A stretch of DNA of 57,636 bases from an uncultured Bacilli bacterium (GTDB taxonomy: Bacteria > Bacillota_I > Bacilli_A > RF39 > UBA660), in NCBI GenBank assembly GCA_944332435.1, contig CALVJW010000005.1, positions 1-57,636 on the forward strand. Reading direction: 5' to 3'. Of this stretch, positions 1 through 43,964 are shown in pieces (positions within the stretch are counted from its first letter, which is position 1; the number at the start of each line of letters is the position of its first letter). The notes under the pieces were generated by a model. The model was not told the DNA's origin. It did no database searches and saw nothing but the letters and a program-made list of their open reading frames with translations. The translations under genes were made by a program, and so were the position numbers.

Positions 1-603
1 TATAAACCAGATAATAGTTTAAATCAAAATAAAAGTGGATGTATGAAATGGTATGCATTTAATGATAGTGAAAGTAGGGATACTGTAAATGTAATCTTAG
101 ATCATAATACAACTTATCAAGTAGCATGGAATTCAAGTGGAAATAATGCTGACGGAATGAACGAAGTAAAAGAAGCATTAGAAAACGATGCCAATAATTG
201 GCATGATGATGTTAAAAGCACAGCACGATTAATCGAAGCGAATGAGATTGCCAAAATTACAGGAAATACCGAGTTTGATGCAACAGTACCAGGAAAAGAT
301 AAAGTATTTTGGCTGGAGGATCCAACATTTGATTTAGATTCTGAAATTATGCCTCCACTTCCACAACCAGGCGAAGCAAAATATAAATGGTTGTTTGATT
401 ATATTGTGTCTTGTACTTATTTTGGATGTAGTGTTGCTGATGATAATACTTGGGGATATTGGACCAGTACCCCTTCAGTATCGTATAAATGGGACGCATG
501 GGGGATGGACAGCACTGGCGGCTTGGGGCACGGCAATATAGACGTTACGGAGTTCGGTGGAGTACGCCCAGTTGTGACTATCTCAAAATCTATTCTCTCA
601 TAA
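1..603 (+). CDS. 5'-truncated surface/pilin-associated protein with C-terminal CLec/DUF6273-like domain
   Basis: Frame is open from base 1 (YKPDNSLNQNKSGC-MKWYAF), so the ATG at 43 is internal. C-terminal GYWTSTP...AW...G...GVRPVV motif. Paralog of 43332-43964. Confidence 0.75.
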   Translation, partial: YKPDNSLNQNKSGCMKWYAFNDSESRDTVNVILDHNTTYQVAWNSSGNNADGMNEVKEALENDANNWHDDVKSTARLIEANEIAKITGNTEFDATVPGKDKVFWLEDPTFDLDSEIMPPLPQPGEAKYKWLFDYIVSCTYFGCSVADDNTWGYWTSTPSVSYKWDAWGMDSTGGLGHGNIDVTEFGGVRPVVTISKSILS

Positions 604-664
604 AGAGGCAAATGAAAGAAGAAAAAAACAGTGTGTGGCACTTGTATTATTGATTTGTGTTAAG

Positions 665-689
665 AGCAGTCGAAGACTGCTTTTTTTTT
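665..689 (+). terminator. Intrinsic terminator
   Basis: agcagtc-gaa-gactgct stem followed by a T run. Confidence 0.8.
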
Positions 690-708
690 AGCAACTATTA
701 TTTTTTAT

Positions 709-2646: not shown

Positions 2647-2982
2647 TTGTTAGAAATTAATATGGAATTTCGAAAAGGAATATTATTTGTTAGACTTATT
2701 GGCAAATTAACAAAATATACGGTTTCTGTATTAGAAAAAGAAGTAACAAGAGTGGTAAAAGAGTATGGAATTGGAAATGTTGTATTTAATGTATCTGGTT
2801 TAACAGAACTAGATCAAGTAGGGATGCAAGCACTTATTCAAAATGGACATAATCATGGAAAACTTGTGATTTGTGGATTAGAACAAAAAGAAATGAAAAA
2901 ACAGATGAAAAAACAGCACATGTTTGATTATTTAATGGAAGTGAGTGATGAACTAAGTGCGTTACATTATTTAGAAAGGTAG
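2647..2982 (+). CDS. spoIIAA: Anti-sigma-F antagonist (STAS domain), divergent
   Basis: GILFVRLIGKL...VVFNVSGLTELD..G...KLVICG. Directly upstream of sigF. Confidence 0.75.
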   Translation: MLEINMEFRKGILFVRLIGKLTKYTVSVLEKEVTRVVKEYGIGNVVFNVSGLTELDQVGMQALIQNGHNHGKLVICGLEQKEMKKQMKKQHMFDYLMEVSDELSALHYLER

Positions 2983-2985
2983 AAA

Positions 2986-3657
2986 ATGATGAAAGAGAGT
3001 TTAGAACAATTAATTGTAGAAAATGCCAATTTAATTTATAAAATAGCGAATATGTTTCGTAATAGTAATTGTGATATGGATGATTTAAAACAAGTTGGGA
3101 AAATGGGATTTATTGAAGCTTATCAACATTTTGATTCTAGTCATGGGGTAAAATTTACAACTTATGCTTATCCTTACATTTATGGAGCTATTAGCAAATA
3201 TGTAAGAGAAAATAAAGGCTTAAAAATTAGTAGAGAATTAACGAAACTATATTACAAAATAGAAAAAGCTTCTCTATTACTTACACAAAGGTTTTTTCGA
3301 GAACCGACAACATTAGAATTAGCGAATGAATTAAATTTACCGGAAGATATCATTATTGAAGCATTATTGTCAAAAAATACCATTCATAGTATTGATGAAC
3401 CAGTAGGTAAAAAAGATAAAGAATTAACATTACATGAAGTAATTCAAGATCCAGTTATCATTGATATTGATGATCATATGATGTTAGAAGAAGCGTTACA
3501 GTATTTAACAGAAGAAGAATATGCATTAGTAGAAAATCGTTACATAAAAGAACTAACGCAAAGTGAAGTAGCATCATTACTTCATACCAGTCAAGTACAA
3601 GTATCAAGAAAAGAACAGAAAGTAATGAAAAAATTAAGAAGTTATATGATGAGCTAA
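2986..3657 (+). CDS. sigF: Forespore sigma factor SigF
   Basis: DDLKQVG, KFTTYAYPYIYG and LTQSEVA..L..SQVQVSR motifs. Lies between spoIIAA and spoVA. Confidence 0.85.
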   Translation: MMKESLEQLIVENANLIYKIANMFRNSNCDMDDLKQVGKMGFIEAYQHFDSSHGVKFTTYAYPYIYGAISKYVRENKGLKISRELTKLYYKIEKASLLLTQRFFREPTTLELANELNLPEDIIIEALLSKNTIHSIDEPVGKKDKELTLHEVIQDPVIIDIDDHMMLEEALQYLTEEEYALVENRYIKELTQSEVASLLHTSQVQVSRKEQKVMKKLRSYMMS

Positions 3658-3681
3658 CTTGGAAAATTTTCCAAGTTTTTT
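3656..3681 (+). terminator. Terminator hairpin after sigF
   Basis: aacttggaaa/tttccaagtt plus T run. Confidence 0.65.
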
Positions 3682-3710
3682 GCATAAAAAATAAATTTTA
3701 TCGCACATTA
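3682..3710 (+). promoter_or_regulatory. SigG/SigF-type promoter for spoVA
   Basis: GCATA -17 bp- CACATTA, matching the SigG consensus GNATA/CATNNTA with one mismatch. Confidence 0.55.
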
Positions 3711-3725
3711 GTAATAGGTGATAAG

Positions 3726-4166
3726 ATGGAAAAAAATAAATATAAAGAACTTGTTACAAAAAATACACCGAAAGAAAATCGGTTGTATAATGGGATGCTT
3801 GCCTTTTTAATTGGTGGGTTAGTAGGAGTCATTGGCCAACTTCTTATAGATTTTTATTCTTGGAAATTTCATATTCCTACAACCGAAGCATCTAGCTATA
3901 TGATTGTAACGCTTATTTTTGTTGGTTGTATTCTAACTTGTTTTGGATTTTTTGATAAATGGGTAAACTTTGCAAAAGCAGGACTTATCGTACCAATTAC
4001 GGGATTTGCCCATTCTATGATGAGTGCAGCACTTGAGTACAGAAAAGAAGGAATGGTAACGGGAATTGGTGCTAATATGTTGAAATTAGCCGGATCTGTT
4101 ATTATATTTGGCGTTGTAAGTGCTTACCTTTTTGGTATGATTCGATTTATAATATTTGGAGGTTAA
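3726..4166 (+). CDS. spoVAC: Stage V sporulation protein AC
   Basis: AFLIGG..GVIGQ, AGLIVPITGFA and KLAGSVIIFG motifs. Confidence 0.93.
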   Translation: MEKNKYKELVTKNTPKENRLYNGMLAFLIGGLVGVIGQLLIDFYSWKFHIPTTEASSYMIVTLIFVGCILTCFGFFDKWVNFAKAGLIVPITGFAHSMMSAALEYRKEGMVTGIGANMLKLAGSVIIFGVVSAYLFGMIRFIIFGG

Positions 4167-4169
4167 ACT

Positions 4170-5159
4170 ATGACATTTCGTTATAATAATGTTTATATTA
4201 ATGAAACAGGGACGGTTGCTGGTCCTTATGAAAAAAAAGGATTACTAAATAGTTATTTTGACAAAACGTATCAAGATTTTTATTTTGGAAAAACATCTTG
4301 GGAACAAGCAGAATCAAAATTAATAGAGGATAGTGTAGAAATTGTTTTAAATAAAATAGGAAAAACGAAATTTGATATAGATGTTCATATTTCCGGTGAT
4401 TTATTAAATCAAATTACGGCTTCTAATTATGCATCGTCTAATTTAAAAATACCTTATTTAGGAATTTATAGTGCTTGTGCGACAAGTGTAGAGGGACTGA
4501 TTATTGGTGCCAATATGATTGAAGCAAAACAAATTCAACATTGTATTTGTTCTACCTCTAGTCATAATAATGCTGCAGAAAAACAATTTCGTTATCCAGT
4601 TGAGTATGGTGGACCAAAACCGAAGACTACAACGTTTACAACTACTGGTGCCGCTAGTGCATATTTAACTTATCATAAATCTGGAATGAAAGTAGATAGT
4701 GCGACAATTGGAATTGTACAAGACTTAGGTATAAAAGATGTCTATCATATGGGTGCAGTAATGGCTCCTGCAGCAGCTGATACGATTTATCGTCATTTGC
4801 GTGATACGAAACGGGAAATTGGTTATTATGATTTGATTTTAACAGGAGATTTAGGAATTTATGGGAAACAAATCTTAAAAGATTATATGCAAACTGAGTA
4901 TAATATAGTATTAAAAAATTATGAGGATACAGCTTGTTTAATTTATGATCCTAATAATCATGAACATTATGCCGGTGGTAGTGGACCTGCTTGTGCTCCA
5001 TTAGTTACTTATAGTTATATTTTTGATAAAATGCGTAAAAAAGAATATCGCCGTGTTTTATTAGTTGCAACTGGTGCTTTAATGTCACCAACAATGGTAA
5101 ATCAAAAATTAACAATTCCTAGTATTGCTCATGCAATTAGTTTGGAGGTAGTTGAATGA
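4170..5159 (+). CDS. spoVAD: Stage V sporulation protein AD
   Basis: GDLLNQ, AEKQFRYPVEYG, MGAVMAPAA, GGSG and ATGALMSP motifs. Confidence 0.96.
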   Translation: MTFRYNNVYINETGTVAGPYEKKGLLNSYFDKTYQDFYFGKTSWEQAESKLIEDSVEIVLNKIGKTKFDIDVHISGDLLNQITASNYASSNLKIPYLGIYSACATSVEGLIIGANMIEAKQIQHCICSTSSHNNAAEKQFRYPVEYGGPKPKTTTFTTTGAASAYLTYHKSGMKVDSATIGIVQDLGIKDVYHMGAVMAPAAADTIYRHLRDTKREIGYYDLILTGDLGIYGKQILKDYMQTEYNIVLKNYEDTACLIYDPNNHEHYAGGSGPACAPLVTYSYIFDKMRKKEYRRVLLVATGALMSPTMVNQKLTIPSIAHAISLEVVE

Positions 5160-5506
5160 TCTATGTAAACGCGTTTTTATTTTGTGGTATCATTTGTTTA
5201 ATTGGTCAAATTATCTTAGATAATACCAAGCTAACACCTGGTCATGTTACAACGATTTTTGTTTGTGTAGGTGCTTTTCTAGATTCTTTTGCTTTTTATG
5301 ACAAAATGATTCAATTATGTGGTGGTGGAGCTTTAGTTCCAATTACGAGTTTTGGACACTCTCTCATTCATGGTGCTTTAGATCAGGCTTCTGATTTAGG
5401 ATTTATCGGTCTTTTATCTGGAATATTTAGTTTAACATCTGTTGGAATTATTTCCGCTATCATCTTTTCCTTCTTTTTATCCCTTATATTTCAACCAAAA
5501 GACTAG
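5156..5506 (+). CDS. spoVAE: Stage V sporulation protein AE(b)
   Basis: GIICLIGQIILDNTKLTPGH and GGGALVPITSFG motifs. Confidence 0.92.
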   Translation: MIYVNAFLFCGIICLIGQIILDNTKLTPGHVTTIFVCVGAFLDSFAFYDKMIQLCGGGALVPITSFGHSLIHGALDQASDLGFIGLLSGIFSLTSVGIISAIIFSFFLSLIFQPKD

Positions 5507-5575
5507 AATATCTAAAATAATAGATATTCTTTTTGAATTATGGTATAATGATACGGATGTGAAAGGGAGAGGAAT

Positions 5576-6973
5576 ATGAGAGTCAATATTACAACCGATT
5601 CTAGAAAGGTACAATCTGGTGATATTTTCGTTGCTGTAAAAGGATATACCGTAGATGGACATGACTTTATTGAAAAAGCAATTGCAAATGGTGCATCAAA
5701 AATTATCTGTAATCATGGTAGTTATGATGTGGAAACAATTGTGGTAGAAGATACATTAGGATATATGAGTACGTACTTAAAAGAACATTATGGTAAATAT
5801 TTAGAACAGATGAAATTAATCGCGATTACTGGTACAAATGGAAAAACAACAACTGCTTGTTTACTACATAATGCTCTAAATAGTATTGGACATAAATGTG
5901 CTTATATTGGAACAATTGGTTTTTATGTAGGAAAGAAAATCTGTGCTTTGAATAATACAACGCCTGCTTTAGATGACTTATATCGTTTATTTATGGATGC
6001 CTATGAAATGGGATGTGAATATCTTGTTATGGAAGTAAGTAGTCAAGGTCTAGCGAATCGTAGAGTAGAACAAATTCTTTATGATTATGCAGTATTTACG
6101 AATTTGACACAAGATCACTTAGATTTTCATAAAACAATGGGAAATTATGCACTAGCAAAACAGCAATTATTTAGACAATTAAAACCAGGTGGAAAGGCTC
6201 TAGTAAATGCTGATGACTCATTTAAACAATATTATTTGTTAGAAGAAAATGAAAACATTACCTATGGCTTACAAATGGGAGATTATAAAGCAGAAAATAT
6301 TCGTATGACACATCGTGGTTCTAGTTTTCGATTACGTACGAAAGACTTTTTAGAAACCATTGAAACACCATTGATTGGCAATTATAATATTTATAATGTT
6401 TTAGTAGTCATTGTATTATTATTACAACTAGGGTTATCAATCGAAGAAGTAAAAAATATTATCGTGAAATTGAAAGCCCCAGATGGTCGTATGGATACCG
6501 TTGCTTATGGTACCAATAGTATTATTGTTGATTATGCGCATACACCAGATGCGATTAAAAATTTATTGGATACAATGAAAGGTGTTGCAACTTCTCATAT
6601 TTATGCAGTATTTGGGTGCACTGGAGATCGGGATCGTTTAAAACGACCAATTATGACAAAAATGGTAACGGATATGGTAGATTATGCTATTATAACGATT
6701 GATGATCCACATAATGAAGATCCAAGACACGTTGTTTCAGATATGATAGAGGGATTAGATAATACCAATTACGAAGTAATTTTAAATCGTGGTAAAGCAA
6801 TCGAAAGAGGAATTGATTTACTAAAAGAAGAAGATATTCTACTTATTTTAGGAAAAGGACATGAAAGTGTTATTATTATGAAAGATAAAAAAATTCCTTT
6901 TAATGATAAAGAACATGTTATTCAATATATAAAAGAAAAAGAAGCTGTTTTTAGCAATTTGGAGGTGGATTAA
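5576..6973 (+). CDS. murE: MurE ligase paralog 1 (DDPH motif, probably L-Lys-adding)
   Basis: DSRKV, GTNGKTT, EVSS, DHLDFH, DYAHTPD and GKGHE motifs. Confidence 0.92.
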   Translation: MRVNITTDSRKVQSGDIFVAVKGYTVDGHDFIEKAIANGASKIICNHGSYDVETIVVEDTLGYMSTYLKEHYGKYLEQMKLIAITGTNGKTTTACLLHNALNSIGHKCAYIGTIGFYVGKKICALNNTTPALDDLYRLFMDAYEMGCEYLVMEVSSQGLANRRVEQILYDYAVFTNLTQDHLDFHKTMGNYALAKQQLFRQLKPGGKALVNADDSFKQYYLLEENENITYGLQMGDYKAENIRMTHRGSSFRLRTKDFLETIETPLIGNYNIYNVLVVIVLLLQLGLSIEEVKNIIVKLKAPDGRMDTVAYGTNSIIVDYAHTPDAIKNLLDTMKGVATSHIYAVFGCTGDRDRLKRPIMTKMVTDMVDYAIITIDDPHNEDPRHVVSDMIEGLDNTNYEVILNRGKAIERGIDLLKEEDILLILGKGHESVIIMKDKKIPFNDKEHVIQYIKEKEAVFSNLEVD

Positions 6974-7504
6974 TTGATTACAGATGATCAAAATAAATTT
7001 TTGATAGAACGAAATGGTAGATATGAATATTATGATTTTAATTTATATCCAGCTTATTTGATTCATCCACAAGCACAATTATTTATTACACCAACTGGTG
7101 AAAGCTATGTGGTAAGAAACCTGGATACAGCAGCAAATGGTGTTAGTCATTTTGAATTTGCGAAAATGTTAGTAAATAGTAAAATTTTTAGTTTAAGAGA
7201 GTTAGAAGAAGCAAAACATAATCCAAGTGCCAAAAGATGGGTAGTGGAGAGAAATTATTCAGAATCTAATTCAGAATTAGAATATTTAATTGAAGAAAAA
7301 GGATTTATTTTATTTTCTCCACCAACAAATGCTCAGTCGAAAAAAGTTCTTATTCCAAGAGCATTTTTTCCTAGTAATTTATCGTTGCTAACGAATATTC
7401 AAATTAATACATTTCTAACATTTTATGAAAGAGAAGGAACGATGGAATTACCAAAAGAATTTGAAGAGACGTTATATCAAATGGTAGTAACAAAAAACAA
7501 ATAA
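6974..7504 (+). CDS. Hypothetical protein
   Basis: 176-aa ORF abutting murE with a GGAGG SD. No motif recognised. Confidence 0.6.
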   Translation: MITDDQNKFLIERNGRYEYYDFNLYPAYLIHPQAQLFITPTGESYVVRNLDTAANGVSHFEFAKMLVNSKIFSLRELEEAKHNPSAKRWVVERNYSESNSELEYLIEEKGFILFSPPTNAQSKKVLIPRAFFPSNLSLLTNIQINTFLTFYEREGTMELPKEFEETLYQMVVTKNK

Positions 7505-42564: not shown

Positions 42565-42942
42565 ATGGTTAAAATGAATGAAAAAGCATTTACTCTAATA
42601 GAATTATTAGCAATTATTGCTATTTTAGCATTGATTGCTTTAATATCAGTTCCTACTATAGGAAATATTATTAATCAAAATAAGGAGAAGACTTATCGAA
42701 ATCAAATTTTTGAAATAGAGCGTGCAACAGAAGGATTTGTAGCTGAAAATATTAGTGAAATATTGCCAGAAAATACTACTTCAGCTAAGTTATCTTTAAC
42801 TTTATTAAAAGAACGAGATGTTATTGAAGAAAAAGATATTATTAATCCAATCAATGGAAGTGTAATGAATGGTTGTGTTACCGTTTCAATGGATGAAAAT
42901 GGTCAATTTCATGCCAAGTATTCAGAAACACCATGTAATTAA
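42565..42942 (+). CDS. Type IV pilin / ComGC-like prepilin
   Basis: KAF-TLIELLAII cleavage/methylation motif. Confidence 0.88.
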   Translation: MVKMNEKAFTLIELLAIIAILALIALISVPTIGNIINQNKEKTYRNQIFEIERATEGFVAENISEILPENTTSAKLSLTLLKERDVIEEKDIINPINGSVMNGCVTVSMDENGQFHAKYSETPCN

Positions 42943-42956
42943 TAAGGAGCGATTAT

Positions 42957-43964
42957 ATGAGAAGAAAAGGATTTACATTAGTAGAGCTACTAGCAGTACT
43001 AACAATTTTTAGTATTATTTGTCTTTTAGCAGTACCACTTATTTTGAATCAAGTAAAAAATAATCAAGAGCAACTTTCCGAAACACAGAAAGAAATTATT
43101 TATCATGCTGCGTATCTTTATTCTGAAGATACATTATTACCAAATCAAACTAGTTGTGTAACATTACAACAGTTAATTGACGCAGATCTATTAGATGATC
43201 CAGTTCAGGATTTAGAAACGGGAACGACTTTAGAACCAGATCGATATGTTAAAATTGTAACAGATGATAAAAATAAAGTAAGTTATGAATTATTAAAAAA
43301 GAGTGAAGTTTGTACTCCAAGTATAAAATAACCTAAATATAATAATGGAACAGTTATTTATTTTAACCCAGAAACGAATCGAAAATGTAGTAGTAGTGAA
43401 GCCGTAAGTACAACTGGAACAAAAACGGGATGTATGAAATGGTATGCATTTAATGATAGTGAAAGTAGTAATAAGGTAAATGCTATTTTAGATCATAATA
43501 CAACGGCAAAAGTACCATGGAATTCTAGTGGAAGCAATGACCAAATGGTTGAAGCAAAAGAAGCACTTATTAAGGATACTAAAACATGGAATAGTAGTTT
43601 ACAACCAAGGTTTATAGATGCAAATGAGATTGCTAAAATAACTGGAAAGACAGGATTTGATGTAGCGGTTTCTGGAGAAGATAATTGGTTTTATTTTGAA
43701 AATAACACACAAACAGCTCCAAGTTTAAGTCAAGGACAAGCAAAATACAAGTGGTTATTTGATTATACAAATAATTGTACTGAAAATGGATGTGCGATAT
43801 CTGATAGTAGTACCGAAGGATACTGGTTAATTAATAGTTCGGCAACACTTATCAATCGTGCATGGGCTGTGTATAAATATGGTACTGTGAATGATGATCT
43901 TGCAGAGTATGATAACTGTGGAGTACGACCTGCTATAACTATTTTAAAATCGCTTCTTTCTTAA
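42957..43964 (+). pseudogene. Type IV pilin fused to CLec/DUF6273-like domain, interrupted by a single in-frame TAA (43329-43331)
   Basis: KGFTLVELL N-terminus. After the TAA the same frame continues (PKYNNGTVIYFNPET...KTGC) straight into the 43434 ORF, which has no clear SD. Confidence 0.8.

Follow-up and report, generated by a model that had tools for sequence, protein, structure and literature searches.

A probable DGR-written variable region on the C-type-lectin-like head of a type IV pilin-like surface protein in an uncultured gut Bacilli genome

The window, by which we mean the whole stretch of 57,636 nt analysed here, is contig C5 of G000, a 943-kb MAG of 25 contigs (66% complete, 28% GC) from an uncultured gut Bacilli with a genome size of about 1.4 Mb. 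It opens inside a gene whose remaining 3' part encodes a lectin-like head, and continues with an intrinsic terminator and a PadR-like gene (763-1092); farther downstream there is a second member of the same family, preceded by a small pilin-like gene. These features are listed in Table 1 together with all copies of the head that tblastn and DNA searches identified in the MAG.

Table 1. Features of the window and copies of the family head in G000. Positions without a contig name are those of the window; GC, NNC codons and non-adenine differences from TR1, the template repeat of G004, refer to the last 84 nt before the 3' boundary.
Feature	Position	Strand	Remarks
Family gene, 3' part	1..603	+	200 codons and TAA; 5' part lost at the contig start; encodes the lectin-like head of what is probably a type IV pilin-like protein
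Variable-region core	469..567	+	99 nt aligning codon for codon with the G004 TR; variable codons 475-558
GC-rich 3' boundary, IMH-like by position	559..571	+	end of TR/VR homology; window copy reads GGAGTACGCCCAG
Intrinsic terminator	662..692	+	hairpin 662-684, 10 pairs, 3-nt loop, then T run
Small pilin-like gene	42565..42942	+	upstream of second family member; FTLIELL-type prepilin motif at the translation start, read by eye
Second family member	42957..43964	+	prepilin-type N-terminal ORF 42957-43331 (124 aa), in-frame TAA 43329-43331, lectin head 43332-43964 (211 codons)
Family copy (window copy)	C5:1-603		GC 0.55; NNC 9/28; 17 non-adenine differences
Family copy (C5b)	C5:43332-43964
Family copy (C1)	C1:15097-16266		only complete copy, 389 aa
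Family copy (C4)	C4:1-963		GC 0.45; NNC 6/28; 19 non-adenine differences and an extra codon
Family copy (C9)	C9:47996-48406		GC 0.48; NNC 9/28; 13 non-adenine differences and a 3-nt deletion
Family copy (C20)	C20:3-398
Family copy (C21)	C21:11142-11492		GC 0.57; NNC 13/28; 0 non-adenine differences
Family copy (C14a)	C14:37-669
Family copy (C14b)	C14:31415-31831

Nine copies of the head are thus found in G000, and their flanks are near-identical. A contig end cuts the 5' side in six of the nine, which means that the assembly breaks at the conserved front parts; the five family genes that were found first all lie at contig ends. Since it is evidently the near-identical pilin front parts that interrupt the contigs, the number of copies in G000 and the pairing of front parts with heads may differ from those in the assembly. 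The contig ends with family genes are nine in number (C4:1, C5:1, C20:1, C9:48406, C21:11493, C14:31833, C6:2, C13:32436 and C2:1). Both ORFs of the second family member in the window are in the same frame and separated by a single TAA, at a position aligned with a Lys codon region in full-length relatives, and this member is either a split gene or a pseudogene.

The N-terminus of the complete copy, C1, is a prepilin motif, which matches N_methyl (PF07963) with 22.8 bits (cut-off 21.2); the score of the same protein against DUF6273 (PF19789) is 18.6 bits, below the cut-off of 23.5. A protein search with C1 yielded 3,140 proteins at E<=1e-5 among 5,881 candidates, and precomputed Pfam assignments place PF07963 on most, and PF19789 on many, of the 120 homologs listed. 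One relative, P0034, scores 26.9 bits against DUF6273, while the 200-aa fragment encoded in the window matches no Pfam family at E<=1. By these profile scores, the window head is a divergent relative of DUF6273 and not a scoring member of it.

The nearest full-length relatives of the window protein (P0002, P0006, P0004, P0009, P0003, P0007 and P0010; 357-362 aa) are 71-78% identical to it, and the prepilin motif starts all seven; an eighth relative, at 64% identity, also carries PF07963. Alleles of the window protein were also sought by protein search, and no match exceeded 64% identity among proteins of near length or 78% among longer ones. Homologs occur in four of 41 genomes (40 relatives and G000), with two matches in G003, six in G004 and 15 in G010. 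A preliminary description of the window had proposed that a paralog of the gene is fused to a pilin, and a type IV prepilin N-terminus is indeed present in the full-length family members. In Streptococcus sanguinis there are type IV pilins of modular build, some modules being lectins. As for the pilus machinery, one T2SSE ATPase match was found in the 66% complete G000, where Peptidase_A24 and T2SSF gave no match; the latter two are encoded side by side in all four of G003, G004, G010 and G301. We therefore consider display of the head on a type IV filament plausible.

The AlphaFold2 model of the 200-aa fragment (42-row alignment) has pLDDT 87.5 and pTM 0.85. Its comparison by VIA-align gave 54 chains at Z>=5, and the best 50 of the 54 are mostly C-type-lectin-like domains or DGR-type lectin folds, aligned over residues 12-197. 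The best chain is the N-terminal part of the Thomasclavelia IgA peptidase (Z 8.5, 140 residues aligned, rmsd 3.2), followed, among others, by the C-terminal domain of Legionella Lcl (Z 7.8), the CTLD of CD72 (Z 6.5), the DGR protein TvpA (2y3c; Z 6.1, rmsd 4.2, 138 residues) and the Bacteroides tip pilin 4eps (Z 5.6). According to the note of the tool, such values are middling, and even the best one, 8.5, is at a common level. Foldseek retrieved no PDB chain at E<=0.001, and its weak rows are mostly C-type-lectin-like chains. We assign the head to the C-type-lectin-like group because the VIA-align list is uniform and because DUF6273 is presented as lectin-like in a passage of PMC10743442. The earlier proposal of a GC-rich stretch at the C-terminus of a CLec-like head thus agrees with the predicted structure, in which the variable region would occupy the last strands and loops.

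This stretch had attracted attention in the preliminary description by the count of 50 G+C in the 80 nt of 491-570, by the codons GAC, AGC, GGC, GGC, CAC, GGC, GAC and TTC, and by the scaffold YWTSTP, AW and GVRP around them. A recount again gave 50 of 80, the codons are in frame, and the scaffold shows no or almost no change in alignments of 42 and 11 relatives. GC content of 481-560 is 57.5%, vs about 25-38% on either side. The entire MAG of 943 kb was sampled in 94,093 stretches of 80 nt, at a step of 10 (mean GC 0.285, sd 0.060). A value of 0.575 is reached in no more than 14 of them, and the two top ones, both with 0.625, are the one at position 491 and the equivalent stretch of the paralog C21. 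The third codon position is G or C in 18 of 28 codons within 475-558 and in 30 of 158 upstream (Fisher p 3e-6). In particular, the GAC:GAT ratio for Asp is 3:0 inside 475-558 vs 1:15 upstream, and the GGG:GGA ratio for Gly is 2:0 vs 0:7. Hence the GC richness is a codon-level effect and does not come from the amino acid content. Moreover, 469-567 is the most variable stretch among the paralogs.

The hairpin that follows the gene, given as 665-681 in the preliminary description, is real, and a scan of 400-900 for terminators found one site vs 0.1 expected. In all eight paralogs examined there is a different hairpin with a T run, 43-154 nt after the boundary; since each of them has a hairpin of its own, the one in the window is an ordinary terminator. 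A role as a DGR cruciform is therefore rejected; the hairpins of the other paralogs are unrelated to it. A promoter-like sequence of the next gene (716-744, 11 of 12 positions matching) lies 3' of the terminator.

Complete DGR cassettes are found in relatives. RVT_1 matches are present in 22 of the 41 genomes, including 15 of the 24 from the same family. In G004, which belongs to the same genus and is 94% complete, one strand carries in this order sufC, sufD, sufS, a 160-aa ORF with a MutS_I domain, a 114-aa bAvd-like ORF, a 399-aa RT, the template repeat TR1 and a prepilin family gene; TR1 (L034) is a non-coding AAC-rich repeat, and the family gene 3' of it is cut by the contig end. The avd-RT-TR cassette of G010 is on a contig of 2,782 bp, the end of which enters a family gene, and in G301 the target that comes after avd, RT and TR is complete, a prepilin protein of 357 aa including its VR. 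Thus, in all three genomes the cassette lies directly upstream of a family member. The cassette proteins match the Pfam profiles bAvd, RVT_1 and MutS_I, and the RTs carry IGNM[ST]SQ (IGNMTSQ in G004) and YMDD, which we take to be hallmarks of DGR RTs. The TRs of G004, G010 and G301 align both to 469-567 of the window and to their own VRs. At the DNA level, the RT end and TR of G004 match 65 of 401 sampled family genomes.

TRs were also compared with targets of the same genome. Within the core, about 19 adenines of the G301 TR and 2 of its other bases are changed in the VR, according to a count by eye on the alignment. In G010, five of eight VRs differ from the TR at 15-18 adenines and 1-6 other bases, two are far off (18 and 14 adenines, 21 and 18 other bases, respectively), and one could not be aligned; taken together, the G010 sequences show one TR with many targets and a gradient of decay. 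Two of the six assembled paralogs of G004 have 16-18 non-adenine differences from TR1, and the other four gave no alignment; the clean targets of this genome may simply be unassembled. One contig of G004, C53 (L080, 1-50), starts exactly at the VR 3' boundary GGGGTGCGCCCAG of a C9-type paralog, which looks as if the assembler had stopped at a heterogeneous VR. In the public relatives P0002, P0003, P0007 and P0009, variation falls exactly on the Asn positions of TR1, while the scaffold residues are kept.

In G000, the clearest relation to TR1 is that of C21, which differs at 21 of 37 adenines and at none of the 62 other bases (Fisher p 8e-12). By this clean adenine-only relation C21 is a textbook VR, and G000 or its very recent ancestor had a TR identical to that of G004 at all non-adenine bases. 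The window copy (469-567) differs from TR1 at 25 of 37 adenines and at 17 of 62 other bases, i.e. the differences are 2.5-fold enriched at adenines (Fisher p 1.3e-4). All its adenine-site changes are at codon positions 1 and 2, while 11 of the 17 non-adenine changes are at codon position 3, and seven are G>A. The preliminary description had suggested looking for a copy that differs almost only at A, and with 17 non-adenine differences TR1 is not such a copy for the window gene. Some of these departures are common to other paralogs (seven to C20, six to C4, six to C1, four to C9 and none to C21, with 16-17 positions comparable). Therefore, a part of what separates the window copy from TR1 is an old family scaffold, and, as none of it is shared with C21, TR1 did not overwrite the window copy recently.

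TR1 homology stops at GGGGTGCGCC. The boundary of C21 and C9 reads GGGGTGCGCCCAG, and that of the window copy, GGAGTACGCCCAG, carries two G>A departures; we suggest that 559-571 may act as an IMH. The last 84 nt before the boundary form a gradient among the copies (Table 1), with C20, C1, C5b, C14a and C14b at its lower end: their GC is 0.32-0.39, NNC codons number 1-2 of 28, and none is clean in comparison with TR1. The VR equivalent of C5b (GC 0.39, NNC 2/28) is without the DGR signature, and its head end is identical at the protein level to that of C14a. Encoding the same head end, these two are a built-in control for an undiversified copy.

These data make it likely that 1-603 encodes the C-terminal, C-type-lectin-like head of a surface protein resembling type IV pilins, with 469-567 as its DGR-written variable region. 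In such a system, the RT copies the template repeat, misreading adenines (mostly in AAC and AAT codons), and the end of the target gene is replaced by the cDNA; GC-rich NNC and NNG codons in a genome of 28% GC would be the result of such rewriting. We infer that the window copy itself was written in this way. One could also explain the stretch without any retroelement: ordinary mutation, together with diversifying selection and amino acid preference, would then have shaped a loop that evolves fast in this paralog family. This would fit the 17 of 62 non-adenine differences, which set the window copy apart from a clean TR product, the lack of a cassette in the MAG, and the five of nine paralogs that vary here with no GC signal. 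However, ordinary mutation at 28% GC does not yield the third-position and Asp codon counts given above, the only equally GC-rich stretch of the MAG is the VR that matches a real TR at 62 of 62 non-adenine sites, and the differences of the window copy itself concentrate at adenines. We consider an origin with no retroelement improbable.

The retroelement was sought in G000 by several approaches. RVT_1 has no match in the 943 kb assembled, and the MutS_I-domain ORF, Avd and RT of G004 gave no tblastn match at E<=0.01, while SufS, SufC and SufD were found in the same search on contig C2 at 95, 95 and 88% identity. Comparison of C2 (1-420) with L034 shows the end of sufS with 140 nt downstream at 88% identity, followed by the upstream region and start of the pilin gene at 82%; between them, at the sufS-pilin junction, there are 38 bp in G000 vs a 2,316-bp cassette in G004. 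At this site the two species thus differ by insertion or deletion of the cassette, which could be elsewhere in the missing third of G000. DNA searches for a non-coding template copy, which the preliminary description had recommended, returned only coding paralogs in the 66% complete MAG.

The search for the own template of the window copy was extended to other genomes. DNA search with 455-606 against 401 family genomes found matches in 12 of them, all in the conserved tail only (query positions 91-152) and none across the VR. Among 160 loci around relatives of the G004 RT, taken from public genomes and metagenomes, none fits the window VR better than TR1 (25 adenine and 17 other differences), and other TRs align in pieces. 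Of 313 proteins retrieved, 41 fit the VR pattern of the same length, and none of them has the window scaffold; their scaffolds form groups of 10, 5, 4 and 3 and singletons, the TR1 scaffold occurring in four. The PadR-like gene downstream of the window copy is conserved in the genus (88% in G004, 74% in G003), and no family gene is present upstream of its orthologs in these two genomes. In G004 the upstream position is occupied by unrelated DNA and a contig end, and in G003 (C3, L094) by a long array of evenly spaced direct repeats resembling CRISPR.

The template of the window copy is therefore not of the TR1 type known from the sister species, no template is present in the assembly, and the window copy is an orphan target here. 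In the preliminary description it was called a remote DGR target. The homology to TRs of real avd-RT-TR cassettes in relatives bears this out in part, whereas the assembled genome has no RT or TR, the cassette is absent from the syntenic site, and the differences are not confined to adenines. For the window copy being frozen in this strain, we see the balance as about even.

It is also possible, if on the doubtful side, that the window copy is a live remote target: a template with its scaffold and an RT would then belong to the third of the genome that is not assembled, or to a short contig that escaped binning, and 475-558 would still be rewritten. The GC content and third-position GC of the window copy are as extreme as those of the clean C21, and long neglect in an AT-biased genome should erode both. 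Moreover, such cassettes assemble badly, as exemplified by the 2.8-kb contig of G010 and by the contig ends at the five family genes found first. Against a live target are the lack of such a template in the 401 family genomes, 160 RT loci and 313 proteins, the absence of the cassette from the syntenic site, and the absence of an RT from the MAG.

Metagenomes bear on the same question. The stretch is present in chicken-gut, gut and faeces metagenomes (18 runs from 11 studies, seven of the runs with at least half of its words). Logan contigs of four runs were compared with 1-1500 of the window; such contigs hide minor variants. Over 565-1500, the unique flank, identity is 99% or higher in each of the four. 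In X15, one contig spans 435-927, with a depth of 30.6 over 501-550 and 30.6-41.2 in the flank. In the other three runs the flank contig ends at the 3' edge of the VR: at 565 in X1 (depth 4.5 over 501-550, 8.1 in the flank) and X3 (0 and 6.8), and at 546 in X2 (0.5 and 5.1). These breaks and the low VR depth are hints of a live target, as is the single difference in the X15 contig, 521 G>T, at position 2 of a GGC codon aligned to AAC of the TR. On the other hand, contigs miss rare variants, and X15 may be the source sample, so its near-identity to the window is not independent. Joints of 474 to 565 were also observed, which we read as paralogs because their ends diverge after 606, where they match C9-type downstream sequence. 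The contig breaks would fit more than one VR at the locus in other samples, and we take them as a hint only, the alternative versions not being among the contigs. Exact matches to a 38-nt piece of this flank were sought in JGI metagenome contigs, and none was found.

Differences between samples, if real, could also come from recombination or gene conversion among paralog heads and not from fresh retrohoming, which is compatible with a DGR origin of the variable region. The nine paralogs with near-identical flanks would provide the substrate, the breaks at 565 border on a conserved tail, which might direct the exchange, and C5:43332-43964 and C14:37-669 share an identical head end. However, none of the eight other copies is a donor for the window VR, the best of them (C21) being 74% identical, and the alternative alleles of X1-X3 were not seen, so that nothing ties them to the paralogs. 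We regard recombination or gene conversion among paralogs as an unlikely source of such differences.

The DGR-written variable region proposed here has parallels in several known systems. In Treponema denticola, according to passages of PMC4891356, one TR serves several dispersed genes of lectin-fold surface proteins, some strains lacking RT and TR retain VRs in which mainly adenines of the TR are changed, and there are "suspicious" targets with excess mutations. These features resemble our case, and TvpA aligns to our model (Z 6.1); unlike the lipoproteins with FGE/CLec heads of T. denticola, the proteins studied here have a type IV prepilin N-terminus and a DUF6273-like head, and belong to an uncultured gut Bacilli with a genome of about 1.4 Mb. 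DUF6273 (PF19789) is described in parts of PMC10743442 and PMC11792537 for lectin-like DGR targets of gut phages, namely tentaclins and targets of Faecalibacterium prophages, with a C-terminal VR. The head family is the same by the precomputed Pfam assignments of our homologs, the VR is also at the C-terminal end of the domain, and structure comparison gives a C-type-lectin-like fold; however, those are receptor-binding or decoration proteins of phages, while ours are chromosomal, pilin-fused and multi-copy, the window fragment scoring below the Pfam cut-off.

Type V pilins of Bacteroides are diversified by DGRs as well, as is stated in a part of bioRxiv 10.1101/2024.11.15.621889. There, as is proposed here, the part of the pilus subunit that a DGR rewrites is its lectin-fold head, and 4eps aligns to our model with Z 5.6, whereas type V pilins are lipoproteins assembled with strand exchange and have no homology in the carrier part to the proteins considered here, which bear a type IV prepilin signal. 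The gene order of the G004 cassette (MutS_I-domain ORF of 160 aa, bAvd, RT and TR on one strand) is that of DGR architecture D, MSL-avd-RT-TR, in the relevant passage of Wu et al. (PMC5758913), with the difference that here the cassette is found in sister genomes only and is absent from the assembled G000. A "G-type pilin" domain is named in one sentence of PMC11661182 among rare VR-bearing domains; apart from such a passing mention, the portions of the literature searched contained no dedicated study of DGR targets on type IV pilin carriers.

Three cues are sufficient to reveal a retroelement-written tip when the retroelement itself is missing: an extreme rise of GC at the codon level within an AT-rich genome, a sister copy in perfect agreement with the template of a relative, and a gradient of decay among paralogs. 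Our observations suggest that uncultured Bacilli with very small genomes, from the gut of chickens and other animals, devote a gene family to lectin heads that are borne on pili and have programmable binding, and that gain and loss of the rewriting cassette set close relatives apart. With little confidence, we also sketch a broader picture. A gut Bacilli of about 1.4 Mb would keep a repertoire of type IV pilin-lectin proteins, at least four of the nine with the footprint, rewritten in trans by more than one template, that of the TR1 type and an unseen one with the window scaffold. The 2.3-kb MSL-avd-RT-TR would be a presence/absence element between sufS and the pilin gene, and strains would switch between evolving and frozen sets of adhesins.

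A second AAC-rich TR, of another type than TR1, was observed in G004 (contig C42, L033) at about 5502-5591 on the minus strand, about 1.2 kb from a 353-aa RT, with a front part of the pilin family nearby at 6885-7458. Together with this RT it would be a second DGR of G004. It was considered as a template and rejected, as it fits none of the G000 copies. Finally, the translations of ORFs at 2647-5506 of the window, inspected by eye, presumably represent an anti-sigma-factor antagonist, a sporulation-type sigma factor and SpoVA-like proteins, which would mean sporulation genes in a genome of about 1.4 Mb.
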